Shown here: piece by piece, positions 140-33,618 of the stretch
Layout: the number at the start of each line of letters is the position of its first letter
How positions within the stretch are numbered: the first letter of the stretch is position 1
Origin: Bifidobacterium breve
GTDB lineage: Bacteria > Bacteroidota > Bacteroidia > Flavobacteriales > Flavobacteriaceae
Direction: 5' to 3'
NCBI GenBank assembly: GCA_943323545.2
Contig: CALPIE020000001.1
Location: 4,347 to 68,346 of the forward strand
DNA length: 64,000 nucleotides
Translations under genes and position numbers: made by a program
The notes under the pieces: generated by a model
What the model saw: only the letters and a program-made list of their open reading frames with translations
The model's database searches: none
What the model was told of the DNA's origin: nothing

Positions 140-1555
140 ATGAAACATCTTAACAAATTATTTGCTTTATTGATGCTATTAGGATTAAGTTCACAAGCTC
201 AAGACAGTAACAACAAATGGGCTATTGGGTTTGGTGCAAACGCAGTAGATGGAGCTAGAGTAAGTGCAGCTTCTAAAGTAGAGGACCAGTTTTCTCAATA
301 TTTTGATGCAAGACATTATTGGAATATTGTTCCATCTGTGTCTTATGTAACGGTTTCTAGACACGTTGGTAGTAATTTTTCTTTCGGATTAACAGGATCT
401 GTTAATAAATTATCAAAACTTGTAAGCGAAAGAACCTATGACCCAATAACAAATACTAACGATTATGTTGTTAGTAATCCTGGAGATTTAGCTTATTATT
501 CTCTTGACGGTGCTATTAAATATAGCTTTATGGGCTTACTTAAGTCAAAAGTTATCGACCCTTCTCTTCAAGCAGGTGGAGGTTACACTTGGATTGGTGA
601 TGAAGCTAAAGGTGGAACTGTTAATGCAGGTGTTGGTTTAACACTATGGTTTACTGAACAAGTAGGTCTTTCTTGGGTTTCTAGCTATAAATATTCTTTT
701 GATTCTAGAGAAAATAGTTCTTCTATCCCAACTCATTTACAACATTTTGCTGGTTTAGTTTTCAAATTTGGAGCTAAAGATACTGACGGAGACGGAATAT
801 ATGACAAAGATGATGCATGTCCAGAAGTTGCTGGTTTAAAACAATTTAATGGTTGTCCAGATACTGATGGTGATGGTATTGAAGATAGTAAAGATGGTTG
901 CCCTAATGATGCAGGTACAGTAGAAATGAATGGATGTCCTGATACAGACGGTGACGGTGTTGCTGATAAGGATGATGCTTGTCCAGAAGTTGCTGGTTTA
1001 AAATCTTTTGGTGGATGTCCTGATACAGACGGTGATGGTATTGCTGACAAAAATGATAAATGTCCAGAAGTAAAAGGTCCTAAAGAAAATAATGGTTGTC
1101 CTTATGCTGATAGAGATGGAGATGGAGTTCTTGACAAAGATGACAAATGTCCAGATGTAAAAGGGACAGCAGCTAATAAAGGTTGCCCAGATGTTTCTGA
1201 AGAAGTTGTTAAAAAATTGAATGACTATGCTAAAACTATTTTATTTGATTCAAATAAAGATTCATTCAAACAACAAACATTCCCAGTATTACAAGCAATT
1301 GCTGCAATTTTAAAAGAATATCCAAGTTCTAAATTCAGTATTGAAGGTCATACAGATAGTGATGGTAAAGAAGATTTTAACCAAAAATTATCAGATGCTA
1401 GAGCTAATGCTGTAAAAAAATATTTAATCGAGCAAGGTATTGACGAATTTAGATTGTCTGCATTAGGTTATGGAGAATCTAGACCAATTGATGTTAATAC
1501 TACTGATGCTGGTAAAGCTAACAATAGAAGAGTTGAAGTTAAATTAGTAAAATAA
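140..1555 (+). CDS. OmpA family outer-membrane protein with thrombospondin type-3 (Ca-binding) repeats
   Basis: Signal peptide, beta-barrel-like N-terminus, repeated DTDGDGxxDxxDxCP units, C-terminal OmpA domain (IEGHTDS...NRRVE). Confidence 0.95.
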
Positions 1556-1576
1556 TTTATTCTAAATAATTTTAAG

Positions 1577-1606
1577 AAACGCCTCGATTTATCGGGGCGT
1601 TTTTTT
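1577..1606 (+). terminator. Rho-independent terminator
   Basis: AAACGCCTCGA-ttta-TCGGGGCGTTT stem followed by a T run. Confidence 0.85.
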
Positions 1607-1617
1607 ATTTTTATAAA

Positions 1618-4374
1618 ATGGTAAATAGAACTTTTATTGAGCAAATTGCAAGTGTACTTTTATTAGACTATTCTAATAAATTAACTAATACCATAATTGT
1701 ACTTCCCAATAGAAGAGCAAAAGTTTTTCTTATAGAATCGCTTAAAAAGCAAACCACTAAAACCATTTTCTCTCCCGAAATAATAAGTATCGAAGATTTT
1801 ATCCAAGACATTGCAGGTATAAGAACTATTGATTCTGTAGAATTATTATTTGAATTCTATACTGTTTATTTAAAAATCACAGACAAGAATCCTGAAACAT
1901 TTGATTCTTTTGCAAATTGGGCAAAAACACTTTTACAAGATTTTAATGAAATAGACAGATACTTAATAGATTCAGATAAAATACTTAGCTATTTAGAAAA
2001 TATTAAAGAGATCGAACATTGGTCATTAGATTTAAACAACCGTACGGAATTAATTGATAAATATTTAATCTTTTGGAAAAAATTACCACTTTATTATAAT
2101 TCACTTTATAATTATTTACTTGAAAAAGGTATTGGATATCAAGGTTTAATATACAGAGAAGCAGATAAAAATATAAGTCATTTTGTAGAAGCCAATAAAA
2201 ACACAAAATTTGTTTTCGCTGGATTCAATGCCTTAAATAAAGCAGAAGAAAAAATCATTCAACATTTTTTAGCAATTGATAAAGCCAAAATATATTGGGA
2301 TATTGATGAAACTTTCTTAAACGATTCCTATCACGATACTGGTTTATTCCAAAGGCGATATAAGTCAACATGGCCTTATTATAAAACCAATCCATATGAA
2401 TGGATTACAACCGATTTTCAACAAGAAAAAAACATTAAGGTAATTGGTACACCAAAATCAATAGGGCAAGCAAAAATTGTTGGTGATATTGTTAAAAAAT
2501 ATAGTAACGACAAAAACGGGGAACTTCATAATGTAGCGATTGTTTTAGGGGAAGAAAGTTTATTATTGCCAATTCTTTATTCTTTACCAAACAATGTTGA
2601 TTCAGTAAACATTACAATGGGATTTTCTAGCAAGAACAATCCCGCTCAATTGCTAGTGTCAAAATTGTTTAAAATGCACACTAATGCATTGTCAAGGAGC
2701 GCAAATAGTTATGTTTTTTATTACAAAGATGTTTTAGATATTTTAACACATCCATTAATTGAATCTTTTGTTTTTGCAAATGATTTGGTAAATCTAATTA
2801 ATCAAAACAATTATACCTTCTTTCCACATAAAAAAATAGAAGAGTTGCATCCTAATGGCAACTCCCTTTTTCAATTGCTTTTTCAAAAGTGGAATTCTGA
2901 TTCAGTTACTATCCTTGAGAATTTATCACAGATTTTAGTGATAATTAAAGACAATTTGAGTCGGGATAACGAAGAAGAAAAAATAACTAATGCCTTTGTT
3001 TACTCAATTTTTAAAGTGATTAATCAGATGATTTCTTATTTTTCTTCTCATCAAAACATAAACAATATCGACACACTGCACGCCATTTATAAACAAGTAA
3101 TTGATGTTGCCGAAGTTTCTTTTGAAGGTGAGCCTTTAAACGGATTACAAATCATGGGTGTTTTAGAAAGCCGAGTACTTGACTTTGAAACGGTAATTAT
3201 TACTTCTGTAAATGAAGGTAAGTTTCCTTCAGGGAAAAGTATCAATTCTTTCATTCCTTATGACGTTAAAAAGGAATATGGTTTGCCTACAATTAAAGAA
3301 AAAGACGCCATTTATTCGTATCATTTTTATCATTTATTACAACGCGCTAAAAATGTTTATTTACTATATAATTCAGATAGTGAAGGTTTAGACGCTGGAG
3401 AAAAAAGTAGATTTATCACCCAATTGGAAGTCGAAAAACAGTTCAAACACAAAGTGTCTTTTCAAATTTACAATGCCGATGTGCCGGAAATAGCAAGTGA
3501 GCCAAAACGCATTCCTAAAACAGAAAATGTAATGCAAAGACTTGCAACCATTGCTGAGAAAGGATTTTCACCTTCTTCATTAACCACCTATATTAGAAAT
3601 CCTATTCAGTTTTATTTTCAACGCATCTTGCGTATTTCTGAAACCGATGAGGTAGAAGAAGACGTTGCCATAAACACACTAGGAACAATCATTCACAAAG
3701 TTTTAGAAGAATTGTACCAACCATTTATTGGAAGAATACTTACTGTTGAAGACATTCAGGTATGTTTCAATAAAATCGACACCGAAGTAATCAAACAATT
3801 CAAAGAAATATACAAAGAAGGGGAAATTAAAAAAGGAAGAAATTTGTTGGCATTTGAAGTCGCCAAACGCAACATTTACAATTTTTTAAAATTAGAATTG
3901 GAAGCGCTTAAAAATGGTGATGTAGTTCAGATTATTGCTTTAGAAAAACAGTTGGAACGACTTTTAGAACATCCAAAATTACCATTTCCGGTAAAAATTG
4001 CAGGAAATGTAGATCGAATTGAATTGCGTGATGGAAGCATCCGAATCATCGATTATAAAACAGGTAAAGTAGAAAAATCAAACGTAACTTTAAAACAATG
4101 GTACGGATTAACTTCCGACATTAAAAACGACAAAATAATACAAATATTAGCCTATGCTTTTATGTACGAACCTCATGCTAAAGGACAAGAAATGAAAGCT
4201 GGAGTTATCTCTTTTAAAAACCTAAAATCCGGATTTTTGCCATTTAGTTTTAAAGAAGATAAAGAAGTTATTGAGGTTATTTCTCCTGAAATAATGCAGC
4301 AATACCTAGAAGAAATAGTTGTTTTACTAAATGAAATTTTAGATGTAACCGTTCCTTTTGAAGAGAAAACTTAA
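1618..4374 (+). CDS. AddB-like protein with C-terminal PD-(D/E)XK nuclease domain
   Basis: N-terminal VLPNRRA motif, SPSSLTTY, GxVDRIE...IIDYKTG nuclease motifs. Confidence 0.85.
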   Translation: MVNRTFIEQIASVLLLDYSNKLTNTIIVLPNRRAKVFLIESLKKQTTKTIFSPEIISIEDFIQDIAGIRTIDSVELLFEFYTVYLKITDKNPETFDSFANWAKTLLQDFNEIDRYLIDSDKILSYLENIKEIEHWSLDLNNRTELIDKYLIFWKKLPLYYNSLYNYLLEKGIGYQGLIYREADKNISHFVEANKNTKFVFAGFNALNKAEEKIIQHFLAIDKAKIYWDIDETFLNDSYHDTGLFQRRYKSTWPYYKTNPYEWITTDFQQEKNIKVIGTPKSIGQAKIVGDIVKKYSNDKNGELHNVAIVLGEESLLLPILYSLPNNVDSVNITMGFSSKNNPAQLLVSKLFKMHTNALSRSANSYVFYYKDVLDILTHPLIESFVFANDLVNLINQNNYTFFPHKKIEELHPNGNSLFQLLFQKWNSDSVTILENLSQILVIIKDNLSRDNEEEKITNAFVYSIFKVINQMISYFSSHQNINNIDTLHAIYKQVIDVAEVSFEGEPLNGLQIMGVLESRVLDFETVIITSVNEGKFPSGKSINSFIPYDVKKEYGLPTIKEKDAIYSYHFYHLLQRAKNVYLLYNSDSEGLDAGEKSRFITQLEVEKQFKHKVSFQIYNADVPEIASEPKRIPKTENVMQRLATIAEKGFSPSSLTTYIRNPIQFYFQRILRISETDEVEEDVAINTLGTIIHKVLEELYQPFIGRILTVEDIQVCFNKIDTEVIKQFKEIYKEGEIKKGRNLLAFEVAKRNIYNFLKLELEALKNGDVVQIIALEKQLERLLEHPKLPFPVKIAGNVDRIELRDGSIRIIDYKTGKVEKSNVTLKQWYGLTSDIKNDKIIQILAYAFMYEPHAKGQEMKAGVISFKNLKSGFLPFSFKEDKEVIEVISPEIMQQYLEEIVVLLNEILDVTVPFEEKT

Positions 4375-4456
4375 CCGCAAAGAGTGCAAATAAAAAAGGC
4401 AAGGTTCGCTAAGTTTTTTCTTGCGAACCATGCGTAAAGCCTTTCGCACTTTGTGC
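4375..4456. repeat. Imperfect palindromic intergenic element (CGCAAAG/CTTTGCG-like units), probably a bidirectional terminator
   Basis: GCAAAGAGTGC...GGTTCGCTAAG/CTTGCGAACC...GCACTTTGTGC between convergent genes. Confidence 0.5.
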
Positions 4457-5239
4457 TCAAATTTTTTTCAAATAATCCAACATCACTTTTAACAACTTCT
4501 TTTCATTTTCAATGTGGCTCATGTGTCCGTCTTCAAAAGTCACGAGTTGTACTTTGGTTCCAATTATTTGTTCGAGATTATCTTCATATTTCAAAACACC
4601 ATCATTTTTCCCAAGAATTAACAAAATAGGAAAAGGCGCAAAGTGCAAAATAACTTCACGGTCTTTGCGGATTTTCATTCCTTCCAAAGCGGCAACGATG
4701 CCTTGTAAAGGTGTTTTTAAAGCCTCCAGTTTCACGTTTTCTATTTCTTTGACCAAACGCTCCCGATTGTCCTCACTAAACAGATTGGCAATCGATATGC
4801 GCACGAAAGTTTCATAATTTTGTTTCACTGCTTTTATTGCCCGGTTCCGATTGATTTTTCGTTCATGACTATCCGCTTTTGCGGTCGAGTTCAACAGCAC
4901 CAATCCTTTCATCACTTCTGGATACAATTCGGCAATGGCTAAGGCCACATATCCGCCCATCGAATGCCCAACAAAAACTGCTTTTCTGATTTTTAAATCG
5001 TGCAAAACGGCATGAACCATATCGGCTTGGTCTTCCATAGTGTGAACGTAACCCAAACATTCAGTCTGCCCATGTCCCAATAAATCAATTGTAATTATTC
5101 TATATTTCTTTGAAAGTTCAGGAATAAAAGCAGTCCACATTTCTTTGTTTTCCAAATAACCGTGAAGTAACACTAAAGCAGCTCCCTTTCCATAATCAGA
5201 ATAGGAGATTTTTGTGTTTTTGAAGGTTGTGGTTTTCAT
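4457..5239 (-). CDS. Alpha/beta fold hydrolase
   Basis: LLHGY, GHSMGG nucleophile elbow, C-terminal GH; ATG 5239 preferred because a TATTTTTG box lies just upstream. Confidence 0.9.
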   Translation of the reverse strand: MKTTTFKNTKISYSDYGKGAALVLLHGYLENKEMWTAFIPELSKKYRIITIDLLGHGQTECLGYVHTMEDQADMVHAVLHDLKIRKAVFVGHSMGGYVALAIAELYPEVMKGLVLLNSTAKADSHERKINRNRAIKAVKQNYETFVRISIANLFSEDNRERLVKEIENVKLEALKTPLQGIVAALEGMKIRKDREVILHFAPFPILLILGKNDGVLKYEDNLEQIIGTKVQLVTFEDGHMSHIENEKKLLKVMLDYLKKI

Positions 5240-5292
5240 AATTGCAAAAATAGATTTTAACCACCAAAGCACGAATTTTTTATCATTCTTTT

Positions 5293-5393
5293 TGTCATTT
5301 CGAGGCACGAGAAATCACATAATAACTTCAACTGCTTGATGAGATTGCTTTGCCAGTTCGCTATTGCTCGTGTCCTCATACTTCGGAATGACA
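5293..5393. repeat. REP-like palindromic element (GTCATTTCGAGG...GAGAAATC / GAGATT...CGGAATGAC)
   Basis: Terminal inverted repeats TGTCATTTCGA / TCGGAATGACA with an internal AATC/GATT stem. Confidence 0.65.
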
Positions 5394-5404
5394 AAACTAT
5401 GCAT

Positions 5405-5432
5405 AAAAAAACGGCTCACTAACGTAAACCGT
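5405..5432 (-). terminator. Terminator of pepP
   Basis: Minus strand reads ACGGTTTAC-gtta-GTGAGCCGT followed by a T run. Confidence 0.7.
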
Positions 5433-5433
5433 C

Positions 5434-5475
5434 TATTATCTATATTCTATTATCTTTTCTCTTTGTTCTATTCTC
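5434..5475 (-). repeat. Degenerate heptamer tandem array (6 units, GAnnAwA on minus strand)
   Basis: TATTATC TATATTC TATTATC TTTTCTC TTTGTTC TATTCTC directly after the pepP stop. Confidence 0.7.
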
Positions 5476-5478
5476 TCC

Positions 5479-6771
5479 CTAAGAATTCATTATCGATTCA
5501 ATTTCCTCAACTTCAATCGGGATGTTACGCATCAAATTAAAAGCGGCTCCTTTTTCCTGAATGACCATATTGTCTTCAATACGAATTCCGAATCCTTCTG
5601 CCGGAATATAAATACCTGGTTCAACTGTAAATACCATATTTGCTTGCATGGCTTCGTGCAACAATCCGTAATCGTGGGTGTCCAATCCCATGTGGTGCGA
5701 GGTTCCGTGCATGAAATATTTTTTATAGGCTGGCCAATCCGGATTTTCATTTTGAACATCGGCTTTGTCAATCAATCCCAAACCAAGTAATTCGGAAGTC
5801 ATTATTTTCCCAACTTCCACATGATATTGTTTCCAAAAAGTTCCCGGAACTAGCATTTTTGTAGCTTCATTTTTCACTCTTAAAACGGCATTGTATACTT
5901 CTTTTTGTCGGTCAGAAAAACGTCCCGAAACAGGAACCATACGCGTCATATCACTAGAATAGTTGGCATATTCTGCTCCAACATCCAATAAAATTAAATC
6001 GCCCGCTTTACATTGCTGGTTGTTTTCAATGTAATGCAACACATTGGCGTTATTCCCAGAGGCAATAATCGGCGTGTAAGCAAAACCTTTCGAACGATTG
6101 CGTAAAAATTCATGTGCGAATTCGGCTTCAATTTCGTATTCCATTATGTTGGGTTTAACGAAATTCAATACACGGCGATATCCTTTCTCAGTGATATCAC
6201 AGGCGGTCTGAATTAAATCGAGTTCTTCACTTTCTTTAATCGAACGAATGCGTTGCAAAATAGGATTCGATTTTTCGACTTTATGAGCTGGGTAATTTGC
6301 TGCCCACCATTTGATAAAACGCGCTTCACGGGTTTCGGTTTCGATACTGGCTCTGTAATGTTCGTTGGTATTGATGTACATTGTATCGGCATAAGCCATT
6401 ACTTCTTTCAAAGTTTTATGAAAATCTTGCAACCAAATCACCGTTTTTACACCCGATACTTCAAAAGCACGATCTTTTGTTAATTTTTCACCTTCCCAAA
6501 TGGCAATGTGTTCGTTGGTTTCTTTTAGGAATAGAATCTCTTTCAAATTCTCATACGGTGCATCTGGAAAAAGCAATAGAATACTTTCTTCCTGATCAAC
6601 ACCAGATAAATATAAGATATCACGATGTTGCGCAAAAGGCAACGTACTGTCGGCACTTACAGGATAAATATCATTCGAATTAAAAACAGCAACACTATTT
6701 GGTTTCATTTGCGAAGTAAATTTCGCTCTGTTTTTAATATATAAATTGCGGTCTATTTGGTGGTATTTCAT
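5479..6771 (-). CDS. pepP: Xaa-Pro aminopeptidase (M24B)
   Basis: AMP_N domain; metal ligands in LLDVGAE, SDMTR, HGTSHHMGLDTHD, TVEPG, RIEDN. Confidence 0.92.
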   Translation of the reverse strand: MKYHQIDRNLYIKNRAKFTSQMKPNSVAVFNSNDIYPVSADSTLPFAQHRDILYLSGVDQEESILLLFPDAPYENLKEILFLKETNEHIAIWEGEKLTKDRAFEVSGVKTVIWLQDFHKTLKEVMAYADTMYINTNEHYRASIETETREARFIKWWAANYPAHKVEKSNPILQRIRSIKESEELDLIQTACDITEKGYRRVLNFVKPNIMEYEIEAEFAHEFLRNRSKGFAYTPIIASGNNANVLHYIENNQQCKAGDLILLDVGAEYANYSSDMTRMVPVSGRFSDRQKEVYNAVLRVKNEATKMLVPGTFWKQYHVEVGKIMTSELLGLGLIDKADVQNENPDWPAYKKYFMHGTSHHMGLDTHDYGLLHEAMQANMVFTVEPGIYIPAEGFGIRIEDNMVIQEKGAAFNLMRNIPIEVEEIESIMNS

Positions 6772-8781: not shown

Positions 8782-9447
8782 ATGGCAGAATCTTCAATGT
8801 TAAAGTCTTCTATTGCTAAAAAAGTAGCTATGGCACTTTCTGGACTTTTCTTAATTACCTTCTTATCACTTCATTTTTTTATAAATCTCATTTCAGTAAT
8901 CGACCAAGACACATTTAATGAATTTTCTCATTTTATGGGAAATAATGGATTGATACAATTTGTAATGCAACCAGTTTTAATAATCGGAGTGGTTTTTCAC
9001 TTTGTAATGGGATTTGTATTAGAATTAAAAAATAGAAGCGCTCGTCCAATTTCGTATGCCAAATACAATGGTGCAGCAAATTCTTCTTGGGCTTCAAGAA
9101 ACATGATTATTTCAGGTTTGGTAGTTTTGGCTTTTTTAGGATTGCATTTTTATGACTTTTGGATTCCAGAAATGGTTTACAAATATGTAGATGTAAATCC
9201 GATAGACGAAACACGTTATTTCACTGAGTTAGTACATAAATTTGAAAGTCCTGTTCGTACTGGTTTGTATTGTTTGTCATTTTTACTTTTGTCACTACAC
9301 TTATGGCACGGTTTCAATTCGTCTTTCCAATCGGTTGGATTCAATAATAAATTTTCAAAATCTTTACACAAATTAGGATATGCGTTTGCAATAGTAGTTC
9401 CTTTTGGATTCATTTTTATTGCATTATTTCATCATTTTAATCATTAA
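8782..9447 (+). CDS. sdhC: Succinate dehydrogenase/fumarate reductase cytochrome b subunit
   Basis: Five TM helices with haem-ligand His residues; first gene of the operon. Confidence 0.93.
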   Translation: MAESSMLKSSIAKKVAMALSGLFLITFLSLHFFINLISVIDQDTFNEFSHFMGNNGLIQFVMQPVLIIGVVFHFVMGFVLELKNRSARPISYAKYNGAANSSWASRNMIISGLVVLAFLGLHFYDFWIPEMVYKYVDVNPIDETRYFTELVHKFESPVRTGLYCLSFLLLSLHLWHGFNSSFQSVGFNNKFSKSLHKLGYAFAIVVPFGFIFIALFHHFNH

Positions 9448-9453
9448 TATCAT

Positions 9454-11463
9454 ATGAAATTAGATTCTAAAATACCAGAAGGTAACATTTCTGACAAATG
9501 GACCGATTATAAAGACCATTTAAAGTTAGTAGCGCCAAATAATCGTCCAAAAATTGATATTATTGTTGTTGGAACGGGCTTAGCTGGCGCGTCGGCTGCC
9601 GCTTCTCTTGGTGAAATGGGCTACAATGTAAAAACATTTTGTTTTCAAGATTCGCCGCGTCGTGCTCATTCTATAGCTGCTCAAGGCGGAATCAACGCTG
9701 CAAAAAATTACCAAAATGATGGAGATAGTACATTTCGTTTGTTTTATGATACCATAAAAGGGGGCGATTATAGAGCACGTGAAGCTAATGTGCATCGCTT
9801 AGCAGAAGTTTCATCAAATATCATCGATCAATGTGTAGCACAAGGAGTCCCTTTTGCTCGTGATTATGGGGGATTATTAGATAATAGATCATTTGGAGGA
9901 ACTCAAGTTCAACGTACATTTTATGCCGCTGGACAAACAGGTCAACAATTATTATTAGGTGCTTATTCTGCTTTATCAAGACAAATTGGTTTAGGACATG
10001 TAAAAATGTATAACCGTCACGAAATGCTCGAATTAGTAAAAGTTGATGGAAAGGCACGCGGAATTATAGCACGTAATTTAGTTACCGGTGAATTAGAAAG
10101 ACATTCTGCTCATGCTGTTGTAATTGCAACGGGGGGTTATGGAAATGTATATTTTCTCTCTACAAACGCCATGGGAAGTAATGTTACAGCAGGTTGGAAA
10201 ATACACAAACAAGGTGCTTTATTTGCCAATCCTTGTTTTGTTCAAATTCATCCAACGTGTATTCCAGTTCATGGAACCAATCAAGCAAAATTGACTTTAA
10301 TGTCAGAGTCTTTAAGAAATTCTGGACGTATTTGGGTGCCTAAGAAAAAAGAAGATGCACAAGCCATTCGTGAAGGAAAATTAAAACCAACTCAATTAGC
10401 AGAAGAAGATAGAGATTACTTTTTAGAAAGAAAATATCCTGCATTTGGAAATTTAGTACCGCGTGATATCGCATCCAGAGCAGCAAAAGAAATGTGCGAT
10501 CAAGGTCACGGAATAGAGGCAAACGACACCAATGAAGGCGTTTATTTAGATTTTGCAACAGAAGTTCAAACCAAAGGAAAACAAGCTGCTTATGCTAAAG
10601 GAAATCACAATCCTTCAGACGCTGAAATAACTGCTTTAGGAAAGCAATGGCTGGAAGAAAAATACGGTAATTTGTTTACTATGTATCAAAAAATTACTGA
10701 TGAAAATCCCTATGAAACACCAATGAAAATATACCCAGCTGTGCATTATACTATGGGAGGTGTTTGGGTTGATTACAATTTACAATCTACAATCCCAGGA
10801 TGTTTTGTTGCTGGAGAAGCCAATTTTTCTGATCACGGAGCAAATCGTCTAGGAGCTTCAGCTTTAATGCAAGGATTGGCCGATGGCTATTTCGTATTGC
10901 CTTATACAATTTCTAATTACTTAGCAGACGAAATCCGAACCGGAAAAATTGCCACCGATACAGCCGAATTTATCGATGCAGAAAGACGCGTGCAAGAAAC
11001 TATAGATACTTTTATTAAAAACAAAGGATCTAAAACAGTCGATCATTTTCACAAACGATTAGGATTGATTATGTGGAATAAAGTCGGAATGGGCAGAAAT
11101 GAAGCCGGCTTAAAAGAAGCGATTACTGAAATTGCAGCTTTAAAAGAAGAATTTTATAAAGAAGTTTACGTTCCTGGAAGCGCCGACGAATTAAATCCCG
11201 AATTAGAAAAAGCGCTGCGCGTTGCTGATTTTATCGATTTAGGACAGCTAATGGCAAGAGATGCTTTACAAAGAAACGAATCATGCGGAGGTCACTTCCG
11301 TGAAGAATACCAAGATAGTGAAGGAGAAACATTACGAGATGATGAAAATTTCTCTTTTGTAGGTGCTTGGGAATACAAAGGGAACGATATTAACCAATCA
11401 GAACTTCATAAAGAACAATTGAAATACGAGTTTATTAAAATTGCAGCTCGTAATTATAAGTAA
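9454..11463 (+). CDS. sdhA: Succinate dehydrogenase/fumarate reductase flavoprotein subunit
   Basis: GTGLAG FAD motif, [21 protein letters not shown]. Confidence 0.97.
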
Positions 11464-11490
11464 TTAGGCAATAGCCAAGAGGCAATAGCA
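11464..11490 (+). repeat. Heptamer array A (left flank of the four-helix-bundle gene)
   Basis: TTAGGCA ATAGCCA AGAGGCA ATAGCA. Confidence 0.75.
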
Positions 11491-11865
11491 ATGACGGTAA
11501 TAAAATCATATAAGGATTTATTAATTTGGCAAAAAGGAATTGATATAATTATTAAATTATATGAATTAGTTGAAGGATTTCCAAAAGAAGAAATATATGC
11601 TTTAACTAGCCAACTAAAAAGAGCAGCAATTTCAATATCTTCCAATATTGCGGAAGGATATGGAAGAAATTCTACTCAAAGTTATATCCATTTTGTGAGT
11701 ATTTCTAGAGGTTCTTTATTTGAATTAGAAACACAATTAATAGTTGCCCAAAAATTGAAATTCATTAAAAATGAAACTTTATTTTCTGATTTAATGAATC
11801 AAATTACAGAAGAAAGTAAAATGATAAATTCATTTATAAATAAATTAGAATCTAGTAAAAATTAG
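11491..11865 (+). CDS. Four helix bundle protein (23S rRNA intervening-sequence protein family)
   Basis: YKDLLIWQK, FPKEEIYALTSQLKRAAISISSNIAEGYGR and RGSLFELETQL signature. Confidence 0.93.
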   Translation: MTVIKSYKDLLIWQKGIDIIIKLYELVEGFPKEEIYALTSQLKRAAISISSNIAEGYGRNSTQSYIHFVSISRGSLFELETQLIVAQKLKFIKNETLFSDLMNQITEESKMINSFINKLESSKN

Positions 11866-11900
11866 TTACTAATGCCTTTTGCCTAATGGCTATTGGCTAA
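11866..11900 (-). repeat. Heptamer array B (inverted relative to A and C)
   Basis: TTACTAA TGCCTTT TGCCTAA TGGCTAT TGGCTAA. Confidence 0.75.
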
Positions 11901-11910
11901 AATAAACATT

Positions 11911-12672
11911 ATGAGTGCAGCAAAAAACATCAATATAAACCTTAAAATTTGGCGTCAGAAAAACGCTAAAGCAAAAGGAAGCATGGAAACATACAAATTA
12001 GATAATGTTTCTACCGCTAGTTCATTTCTAGAAATGTTAGATCAATTGAACGAAGAATTAATTAATGACAAAAAAGAGCCAGTGGCTTTCGACCATGATT
12101 GTCGCGAAGGAATTTGTGGTATGTGTTCGCTATACATTAACGGACGTGCACACGGACCAGATACCGGAACCACAACTTGTCAATTACACATGCGTAAATT
12201 TAATGATGGAGATACCATTTATATTGAGCCATGGAGAAGTAAAGCATTCCCAGTAATTAAAGATTTAGTGGTAGATAGAAGTGCTTTCGATCGAATTCAA
12301 CAAGCAGGAGGTTTCGTTTCCGTAAACACTTCTGGAAGAACGATGGACGCGAATGCCATTCCAATTCCAAAACACGATGCAGACAAATCCTTTGAAGCAG
12401 CAGCTTGTATCGGTTGTGGTGCTTGCGTAGCAAGTTGCAAAAATGGTTCTGCGATGTTGTTCGTCGGAGCTAAAGTATCGCAATATGCTTTGCTTCCACA
12501 AGGGAAAGTAGAAGCAACTGCTCGTGTTTTAAACATGGTACGTCAAATGGATGAAGAAGGATTCGGAAATTGCACCAATACAGGTGCTTGCGAAATCGAA
12601 TGTCCAAAAGGTATTTCGTTAGAGAATATCGCTCGAATGAATAGAGAATATTTATCGGCGAGTTTGAAATAA
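11911..12672 (+). CDS. sdhB: Succinate dehydrogenase/fumarate reductase iron-sulfur subunit
   Basis: [20 protein letters not shown] and [12 protein letters not shown] clusters; ATG at 11911. Confidence 0.97.
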
Positions 12673-12707
12673 AAAGTCAATAGCCATAAGACAAGAGGCA
12701 TTAGTTA
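12673..12707 (+). repeat. Heptamer array C after sdhB
   Basis: AAAGTCA ATAGCCA TAAGACA AGAGGCA TTAGTTA. Confidence 0.7.
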
Positions 12708-12738
12708 ACGCATTCTGTAATTGGGATGCGTTTTTTTT
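12707..12738 (+). terminator. Terminator of the sdh operon
   Basis: AACGCATTCTG-taa-TTGGGATGCGTT plus T run. Confidence 0.8.
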
Positions 12739-12790
12739 ATTGTTAAAAAAGTCAAATCAAGTATCTTTACTTAACATCAGAAGTAACCTC

Positions 12791-13630
12791 ATGAAAAAAA
12801 TTGTCTTTTTACTATTCACTTTTTTGTTTTTTAGTTGGTATAGCATTGCTCAAACGCTTAAGGTAATGACATATAACATTCGCTACGACAATCCCAAGGA
12901 TGGCGAAAATGCTTGGCCGAATCGTAAAGATTTTTTCTTATCGCAGTTGGTCTTTTACGCACCGGATGTTTTCGGAATTCAGGAAGCACTTCCCCATCAA
13001 GTCAAAGACATTGCCACTTTTCTTTCCAATTACAGTTACATCGGAATTGCCAGAGACGGCATCGAAAAAGGAGAATCTTCCAATATATTTTACAACAAAG
13101 ATCGTTTGGAAATGATTAATCAAGATACCTTTTGGTTGTCTGAAACTCCCGATGTCATTTCAAAAGGTTGGGATGCTGCACTCAATAGAATCTGCACTTA
13201 CGGGTTGTTTAAAGATAAGAAATCAAAACAACTGTTCTGGATTTTCAACACGCATATGGATCACATTGGCGAATTGGCGCGAACCAATTCTATTCAACTT
13301 ATACGTTACAAAATAAAAACCCTCAACACCAAAAATTATCCGGTGCTTTTTATGGGCGATTTTAATTCCGAACCCACAGAGGACAGAATCATCAATCTCA
13401 AAAAAGAAATGATAGACAGCAAAGATGCTTCCGAAGAAATTCCCTTCGGTCCATCAGGAACCTTCAATGCATTCAAACACAATGAACCCGTGACCAAACG
13501 AATCGATTATATTTTTTTTTCTAAAGAACATCCAATCAAAGTGAAGAAATACGGCGTTTTAAGCGATTCAAAAGACTTAAAATACCCATCTGACCATTTG
13601 CCTGTTTATATCGAAATTAATTTTAATTAG
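12791..13630 (+). CDS. Exported endonuclease/exonuclease/phosphatase (EEP) family protein
   Basis: MTYNIRY, GIQE, NTHMDH, MGDFN, RIDYIF, SDHLPV. Confidence 0.9.
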   Translation: MKKIVFLLFTFLFFSWYSIAQTLKVMTYNIRYDNPKDGENAWPNRKDFFLSQLVFYAPDVFGIQEALPHQVKDIATFLSNYSYIGIARDGIEKGESSNIFYNKDRLEMINQDTFWLSETPDVISKGWDAALNRICTYGLFKDKKSKQLFWIFNTHMDHIGELARTNSIQLIRYKIKTLNTKNYPVLFMGDFNSEPTEDRIINLKKEMIDSKDASEEIPFGPSGTFNAFKHNEPVTKRIDYIFFSKEHPIKVKKYGVLSDSKDLKYPSDHLPVYIEINFN

Positions 13631-28133: not shown

Positions 28134-28184
28134 TTCATTCACCCTAATTTGCTATTCATTCACTCACAAACGGCGTTCATCTAC
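28134..28184 (+). promoter_or_regulatory. Three 9-bp direct repeats at 21-bp period (putative LytTR binding sites)
   Basis: TTCATTCAC 28134, TTCATTCAC 28155, TTCATCTAC 28176; a further TTCATTCAC at 27986. Confidence 0.7.
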
Positions 28185-28227
28185 CATATACACTATAAAG
28201 TATATCAATAGAACTCCAATGCTATAG

Positions 28228-33556: not shown

Positions 33557-33578
33557 ACCCAACAACGTAAGTCATCGG

Positions 33579-33613
33579 GTTTTTCTTTGTTCTTTTTTCT
33601 TTGTTCTTTTTTC
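33579..33613 (-). repeat. Heptamer tandem array after the lepA stop
   Basis: TTTGTTC/TTTTTTC alternating, next to hairpin 33555-33582. Confidence 0.6.
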
Positions 33614-33618
33614 TCATA

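Follow-up and report, generated by a model that had tools for sequence, protein, structure and literature searches.

The window analysed here is a stretch of 64,000 nucleotides from a bacterial genome (G000, 87% complete), whose gene content and codon style suggest a freshwater Flavobacterium as the host. It contains the genes sdhC, sdhA and sdhB, with a small gene enclosed by two arrays of inverted 7 bp units lying between sdhA and sdhB and a third array following sdhB. The features of the region are as follows.

8782-9447: sdhC, which precedes sdhA (TIGR02046 match)
9454-11463, + strand: sdhA, the host gene 5' of the cassette (NF005749, 1143 bits)
11449-11463, + strand: sdhA tail, the last four codons and the stop, holding a CGT (Arg) and AAG (Lys) pair
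11464-11490, + strand: arm A, the left arm, four heptamer units of consensus WWAGSCA spanning from the sdhA stop to the start of the next ORF
11491-11865, + strand: gene for a four-helix-bundle protein of 124 aa, the IVP gene (PF05635 / TIGR02436)
11866-11900, − strand: arm B, the right arm, five units in inverted orientation
11911-12672, + strand: sdhB, host gene (NF005746, 432 bits)
12673-12707, + strand: arm C, a solo left-type arm, five units of the A/B repeat family, which takes up the interval from the sdhB stop to the terminator
12707-12740, + strand: intrinsic-terminator-like hairpin (12707-12732) with a T run

Arm A, the IVP gene and arm B make up a cassette of 437 bases, and GC content is 22-27% in the insert as against 31-46% in the flanking genes. 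The last unit of arm A overlaps the ATG of the IVP gene at 11491, and the end of arm B is separated by 10 nt from the ATG of sdhB at 11911, a start that is consistent with the sequences of relatives. No inverted repeat in the region is longer than that of B and C (31 nt, 87%), and A and B come next in length (25 nt, 84%); of 35 positions, 7 differ between C and the reverse complement of B. Sequence and profiles therefore confirm the preliminary description of this DNA in its reading of an AT-rich IVP-family gene between sdhA and sdhB with arrays A and B and then C, in its unit-by-unit alignment of B with C, and in placing B about 10 nt from the sdhB start. Terminator-like hairpins resembling the one at 12707-12740 are also present 3' of sdhB in many relatives, and a search of Rfam gave no matches within 11300-12900. 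Further arrays of period 7, made of other unit families, are located in the window at about 33575-33617, 5423-5477 and 28176-28206.

The IVP protein covers the whole of the PF05635 profile (E 7.8e-36, 123 bits, cut-off 33.8) and also matches TIGR02436 (E 4.8e-37, 126.5 bits, cut-off 24). To our knowledge PF05635 is a family without known function. In the profile search only four-helix-bundle families matched the enclosed protein, with no transposase or nuclease domain. Its closest solved relative is the five-chain XCC0516 (PDB 2GSC; E 1.2e-21), from which the protein is predicted to be five-subunit. It is under purifying selection, with dN of 0.05-0.06 against dS of 0.39-0.75 in three pairs (dN/dS about 0.07-0.12). 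Two connections drawn earlier for this family agree with the accessible parts of the literature, namely its occurrence in 23S intervening sequences (IVSs) excised by RNase III, which matches the Coxiella IVS (PMC4990558), and its resemblance to the Avd protein of DGRs (PMC10053308), although the Avd profiles remain below threshold for the IVP protein (NF033474 24 bits against 80; PF22296 20.5 against 40). The accessible part of PMC10910872 mentions the family in a legend only.

Heptamer arrays and related cassettes across the genome

All six PF05635 genes in G000 are flanked by their own inverted arrays of 7-9-mers, which represent five or six distinct unit families. Many other arrays form hairpins that enclose no gene, and there are hundreds of such gene-less copies. 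By period, G000 has 225 arrays of period 7 and 80 of period 8, with 29, 91, 72, 23 and 16 for periods 5, 6, 9, 10 and 11 respectively, and at a looser threshold 396 of 504 arrays are intergenic while 89% of the DNA is coding. The modal number of units per array is four (95 of 167, with five units in 32), in a detection that favours four. The repeat family of A, B and C accounts for 13 intergenic arrays in G000 at a chain score of at least 6, C having a score of 5; among them is a gene-less hairpin on contig C29 that is flanked by convergent genes.

The arrays are oriented with respect to the adjacent genes, G-rich after stops (90 vs 15) and C-rich before starts (92 vs 9). Transcription polarity was considered as the cause and rejected, because an inverted repeat reads identically on either strand and because arrays also occur between convergent genes (18 of 180 pairs) and divergent genes (17 of 231 pairs). 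Stops in all three frames were considered as a purpose of the arms: the G-rich strand has no surplus of them (47% vs 47%), and the C-rich strand does have one (43% vs 24%).

Among 39 cassettes, similarity of the protein tracks the sharing of units even across different junctions: a repeated 5-mer is common to 49%, 19% and 10% of different-junction pairs in three bins of protein identity, from at least 55% at the top to below 40% at the bottom. As protein and arms are linked, this covariation may be plain co-inheritance. A simple rule of one protein for one unit is disfavoured because some genomes hold many family arrays without a close homolog of the IVP protein, as in G046 and G048, with 27 and 45 unit-pattern matches respectively. 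The nearest other subfamily (58-68%; 14 loci) has a related unit and is found mostly at another junction, where two genes of about 190 and 193 aa adjoin, which we take to be gmk and nadD.

Several other arrangements of this general kind were observed. Two other small genes have inverted arms of their own (G000:C23:8237-8611 and C62:2903-3316) and are presumably GxxExxY and DUF559 nucleases, and the host genes at C9:3687-4958 and C12:2062-4206 are bracketed by repeats of such small-gene arm families. On G000:C117, at about 1000-6000, at least six small co-oriented ORFs each have complementary 5' and 3' flanks with a short core in common, a series that we presume to be akin to an integron-like cassette array. 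At L175:1482-1743, L181:2184-2451, L183:1-1543 and L186:1426-1699 family arrays are read in frame as the starts of proteins, giving lysine-rich and hydrophobic stretches that are signal-peptide-like.

Pairing of the arms and the place of array C

Folding of the transcript predicts that B can pair with A or with C, as had been proposed for this locus. The predicted B·C duplex (-43.0 to -45 kcal/mol) is about 13 kcal/mol stronger than A·B (about -31 to -32 kcal/mol). The value of -43.0 kcal/mol for B·C compares with a mean of -10.0 and a best of -21.6 in 1,000 shuffles of C, and that of -30.7 kcal/mol for A·B with a mean of -10.3 and a best of -27.8. In the full-length MFE structure (11440-12760; -329.1 kcal/mol) B pairs with C, and when C is blocked B pairs with A (-316.2 kcal/mol). 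A transcript ending before C, at 11960, is predicted to have B paired with A, with about 21 pairs expected. Thus an A·B stem of 21-26 pairs (-31.9 kcal/mol), with several internal mismatches, is predicted to form on the nascent mRNA.

The alternative pairings could be read as an RNA switch, in which processing or translation would be controlled by an exchange of B between its partners A and C; because B is paired in both states, the target of such a switch would more plausibly be the start codon of the IVP gene, freed when B moves to C. The dominance of B·C in the full-length fold is as a switch would have it, and C ranks first among the 3' flanks of 1,896 gene ends as a partner for B, 13 of which reach -25 kcal/mol. 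The three-arm layout is seen again in L113 and, mirrored around gmk, in L157-L159, and in G000 the number of host genes bracketed by complementary flanks, sdhB included, is 4 of 1,371 against 0.6 expected. However, C is present at only two of the seven cassette loci of the A/B repeat family and is absent from the closest cassettes, while four of six scored C arms occur without B (six of eight if two weaker ones, judged by eye, are added). C is an equally good partner for B arms from genomes that lack C (-44.6 and -43.5 kcal/mol), two distant family arms in G000 pair with B nearly as well as C does (-44.3 and -42.6 kcal/mol), and a matrix of B against C pairings reveals no advantage for own partners. 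Moreover, the A·B stem would form some 770 nt of transcription before C exists. The excess of bracketed genes does not recur in three other genomes, with 0 of 440, 1 of 404 and 0 of 208 against 0.27, 0.05 and 0.09 expected (in total 1 of 1,052 against 0.41). With C untied to the cassette, B and C not co-adapted and neither covariation nor a G·U bias to be seen, the B/A versus B/C processing switch of the preliminary description is not upheld by these comparative tests, and we regard a switch as very unlikely.

A general design in which host genes are bracketed by pairing arms was likewise tried and rejected, as it was found in none of seven strongly detected cases and in 5 of 74 neighbour pairs (p 0.076); scored by duplex energy, the four cases in G000 were not replicated in 2 Mb from the three other genomes. 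Bracketing is seen in three of six cases in G042, but all belong to one cluster.

Since C is the best partner for B among 1,896 gene ends, its position beside the cassette is unlikely to be random, and its rank is not fully explained by random landing. Arrays of the same family are found at neighbouring junctions in L150, L154, L157, L158 and L159, and the spacer that separates sdhB from its terminator is occupied by different REP-like hairpins in L037, L038, L009, L026, L050, L058, L071, L077, L130, L024, L120, L122 and L064. C is likely a locally copied arm, or a stray one that would have landed in this insertion-prone, repeat-prone spacer, and not the partner of an RNA switch; the three-array arrangement looks incidental.

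Whether the arms behave as RNA stems or as sites recognised by a protein bears on a second reading, that of an intervening sequence in mRNA, whereby RNase III would cut the A·B stem, so that the sdhCAB message loses the IVP frame and sdhA and sdhB are split apart. The predicted stem would be available once B is transcribed, G000 has a gene with an RNase III domain, and there is a precedent in the Coxiella IVS, where, in the accessible part of the report, a 28-bp terminal stem with heptamers before the ORF is cut by RNase III (PMC4990558). The density of arrays per kb is also about half as high between divergent genes (0.41 vs 0.83-0.90). On the other hand, the internal mismatches of the A·B stem count against such a reading, as do two comparisons that draw mostly on gene-less hairpins and not on cassettes. 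The sense strand shows no preference for G·U over A·C, with totals of 39 and 46 (24 vs 27 in 35 hairpins, and 15 vs 19 in the 19 hairpins of G046 and G042, G150 yielding none). When arms are swapped between hairpins, partner arms match no better than other arms of the family (+0.16 of 24, p 0.71; 25 of 27 hairpins had a comparison pool). We consider the mRNA intervening sequence a possible but doubtful explanation, and one that can hold together with the mobility model described below.

The pattern of change within the arms is suggestive of recognition unit by unit. When the three close cassettes are compared by eye, A and B vary independently of each other at their free positions, which gives no sign of upkeep of RNA pairing. 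In a contig about 94% identical to the window (runs X8 and X10, from one study) C differs at 9 of 35 positions, none of them at the fixed A, G, A positions (P about 0.006). A kept unit core fits recognition of the units by a protein, or a rewriting of the arms unit by unit. We infer that the IVP protein binds the arms, largely by analogy; the accessible part of a report on Avd describes binding to an RNA stem-loop whose bases insert between the five protomers (10.1101/2023.10.23.563531).

Cassettes and empty junctions at sdhA-sdhB in relatives

The comparison of filled and empty sites that had been suggested earlier was carried out on 135 sdhA-sdhB loci, consisting of 30 (five from other families), 25 new ones and 80 picked among the matches listed; the search behind the added loci matched 207 of 221 genomes, and 134 loci remained after L110, with no called start, was dropped. 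Among these 134 junctions 51 are empty, 63 have short inserts (47 of which fold into at least 14 pairs), 12 contain IVP cassettes, five contain other ORFs and three were unscored. The 12 cassettes are of two kinds: seven have arms of the A/B family and proteins 58-100% identical, and five are distant, with a protein 36-39% identical and a different unit. In the nearest relatives among the loci examined, L037 (97.6%) and L038 (96.8%), the junction measures 12 nt and there is no C, while the closest cassettes among these loci, L042 and L045 (86-89%), have A and B without C. In contigs from DNA runs the cassette is intact wherever the sequence is identical, and empty junctions appear only in contigs that are not assignable to this species. 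Unrelated ORF inserts of 600-760 nt lie at the junction in L012, L054, L066, L070 and L073, so that this junction accepts several kinds of insert.

The carriers L007, L042 and L045 are not sisters on the sdhB tree, in which bootstrap support is not fully settled, and yet a feature of the adjoining sdhA gene accompanies the cassette. In 60 loci of the same sdhB clade the pair CGT and AAG is found at the end of sdhA in all three carriers and in none of the 57 other loci, of which two have CGT alone and four AAG alone. Both changes are synonymous, the non-carrier state being AGA and AAA. Fisher's test gives 3e-5 for the link, a value that is overstated since kin are not independent. Three carriers stand behind this shared tail, and convergence of the two codons, which also extend a small local hairpin, is possible; the second clade has no comparably clean codon link. 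The simplest reading of a tail shared by non-sister carriers points to a cassette that arrives with about 12 bases of sdhA, that is, to transfer with a short flanking tract, and no long co-conversion tracts are seen in the flanks. In the second clade a different cassette in L134 stands in place of the hairpin seen in its sister L121; the flanks are 92-100% identical and no hairpin remnant is left, which fits replacement of the whole junction. The IVP gene has a lower dS than sdhB (0.39-0.75 vs 1.0-1.6), but this is weak evidence for transfer because the gap narrows when the comparison is made on the roughly 25 four-fold sites (0.32-0.52 vs 0.44-0.55).

The same distribution might be explained by long residence of the cassette at the junction, with vertical inheritance and repeated loss that left hairpins, solo arms or clean gaps, and with no need for ongoing transfer. 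The two IVP clades with arms of the A/B family match the two sdhB clades, the identity of the cassettes (85-89%) is near that of the flanks, and arm-only relics are present in L011, L053 and L061. In L014, where the junction is empty, CGT persists together with the four initial bases of arm A, possibly the footprint of a lost cassette. Vertical inheritance would nevertheless need many independent exact losses together with reversion of the two codons to AGA and AAA (as in the sisters L037, L038, L046 and L049), and it sits poorly with the distant cassette that is found at the same junction nested among hairpin-only sisters. We judge it unlikely.

A non-autonomous transposon, with the arms as terminal inverted repeats moved in trans by the transposase of an IS and the IVP gene as cargo, seems more improbable still. 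Inverted ends and hundreds of gene-less copies are what would be expected of it, and the TAA found at either end of the cassette might represent a target duplication of 3 bases, although such a duplication is indistinguishable here because the right-hand copy coincides with the end of the inverted repeat, and the known empty sites come from other species. Subfamilies are however faithful to one junction (sdhA-sdhB or that of the 190/193-aa pair), cassettes displace the earlier content of a junction instead of adding to it, and the shared tail sits within sdhA.

The proposal of a transposase-less mobile element in the preliminary description is thus supported, given the patchy occurrence of the cassette, the 12-nt empty junctions of the nearest relatives and the shared sdhA tail. 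We favour, with somewhat better than even confidence, a junction-replacing cassette whose protein likely recognises its own units and for which C is a stray arm and not a switch partner. In this model recombination across the junction would swap in the cassette along with the last few codons of sdhA between lineages of the genus, the exchange being horizontal and presumably by homologous recombination. The IVP protein would recognise its own 7-base units, by analogy to Avd and the 2GSC pentamer, and the gene-less hairpins and solo arms would be derivatives of cassettes. A more speculative extension, which we put forward tentatively, is that of a transposase-free selfish element in which a five-subunit Avd-like protein reads an arm of five by seven bases and drives a site-faithful 'junction homing' in which an empty gene junction is converted along with about 12 bases of the upstream gene, its cast-off arms, C included, being the source of the unexplained heptamer arrays of bacteria. 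The match of five units to five subunits is a loose one, as the modal count of units is four.

Relation to known elements

The cassette resembles the 23S IVS of Coxiella burnetii with S23p, which in the accessible part of its description has a PF05635 gene in a terminal stem, heptamers before the start codon and a length of about 430 nt (PMC4990558). It differs in lying between the protein genes sdhA and sdhB and not inside a 23S rRNA gene, and also in having heptamer arrays for both arms, a protein subject to purifying selection, gene-less copies throughout the genome and a stem whose excision would be a prediction. In the open-access main texts that were searched, no description was found of PF05635 genes with inverted heptamer arms outside rRNA. 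The locus is a real and apparently undescribed variant of the IVS design, behaving as a junction-specific mobile cassette.

Avd and XCC0516 are relatives of the IVP protein in sequence, and according to the accessible parts of the reports they form five-chain rings of four-helix bundles (PDB 2GSC; 10.1101/2023.10.23.563531, PMC10053308). Unlike in DGRs, the neighbours of the IVP gene are sdh genes with no adjacent reverse transcriptase, and the protein falls under the Avd cut-off. The one match to a reverse transcriptase profile (PF00078) in the 87% complete genome (L172, G000:C179:1479-1883) is on another contig, within an open frame of 1,077 codons.

REP/REPIN sequences with RAYT, and MITEs, are dispersed intergenic inverted repeats with many gene-less copies and a rare gene-bearing form. 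The cassette family is similar in having dispersed inverted repeats that are mostly gene-less, and arms A and B are comparable to the terminal inverted repeats of MITEs and IS-derived elements. In contrast to these systems, the arms are tandem heptamers, the enclosed protein has no match to an HUH (Y1) transposase, and the cassette stays at a single junction and apparently takes codons of the host along.

In many bacteria intergenic regions are enriched in heptamer arrays, for which there is no agreed cause (PMC4692102, PMC4679880). According to the accessible parts of these reports, intergenic arrays in Xanthomonas and Nostoc (PMC4692102) and in Beggiatoaceae and Bacteroidetes (PMC4679880) mostly have four units and lie near stop or start codons, often as inverted pairs, with 70 in X. 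campestris; within their main texts, to which the comparison applies, the term 'four-helix' is absent, so that nothing there was seen to connect the arrays with PF05635. The present arrays differ from the published ones in comprising many unit families side by side, every one of them linked to a subfamily of the protein.

This locus contributes a clue to mobility, together with the tests on the arms. It ties heptamer arrays to PF05635, with empty, hairpin-only and gene-bearing states that are comparable at one junction. As leads to mechanism, a few codons of the upstream gene seem to move along with the cassette, and the arms act like recognition sites that are read unit by unit and not like co-evolving RNA stems.
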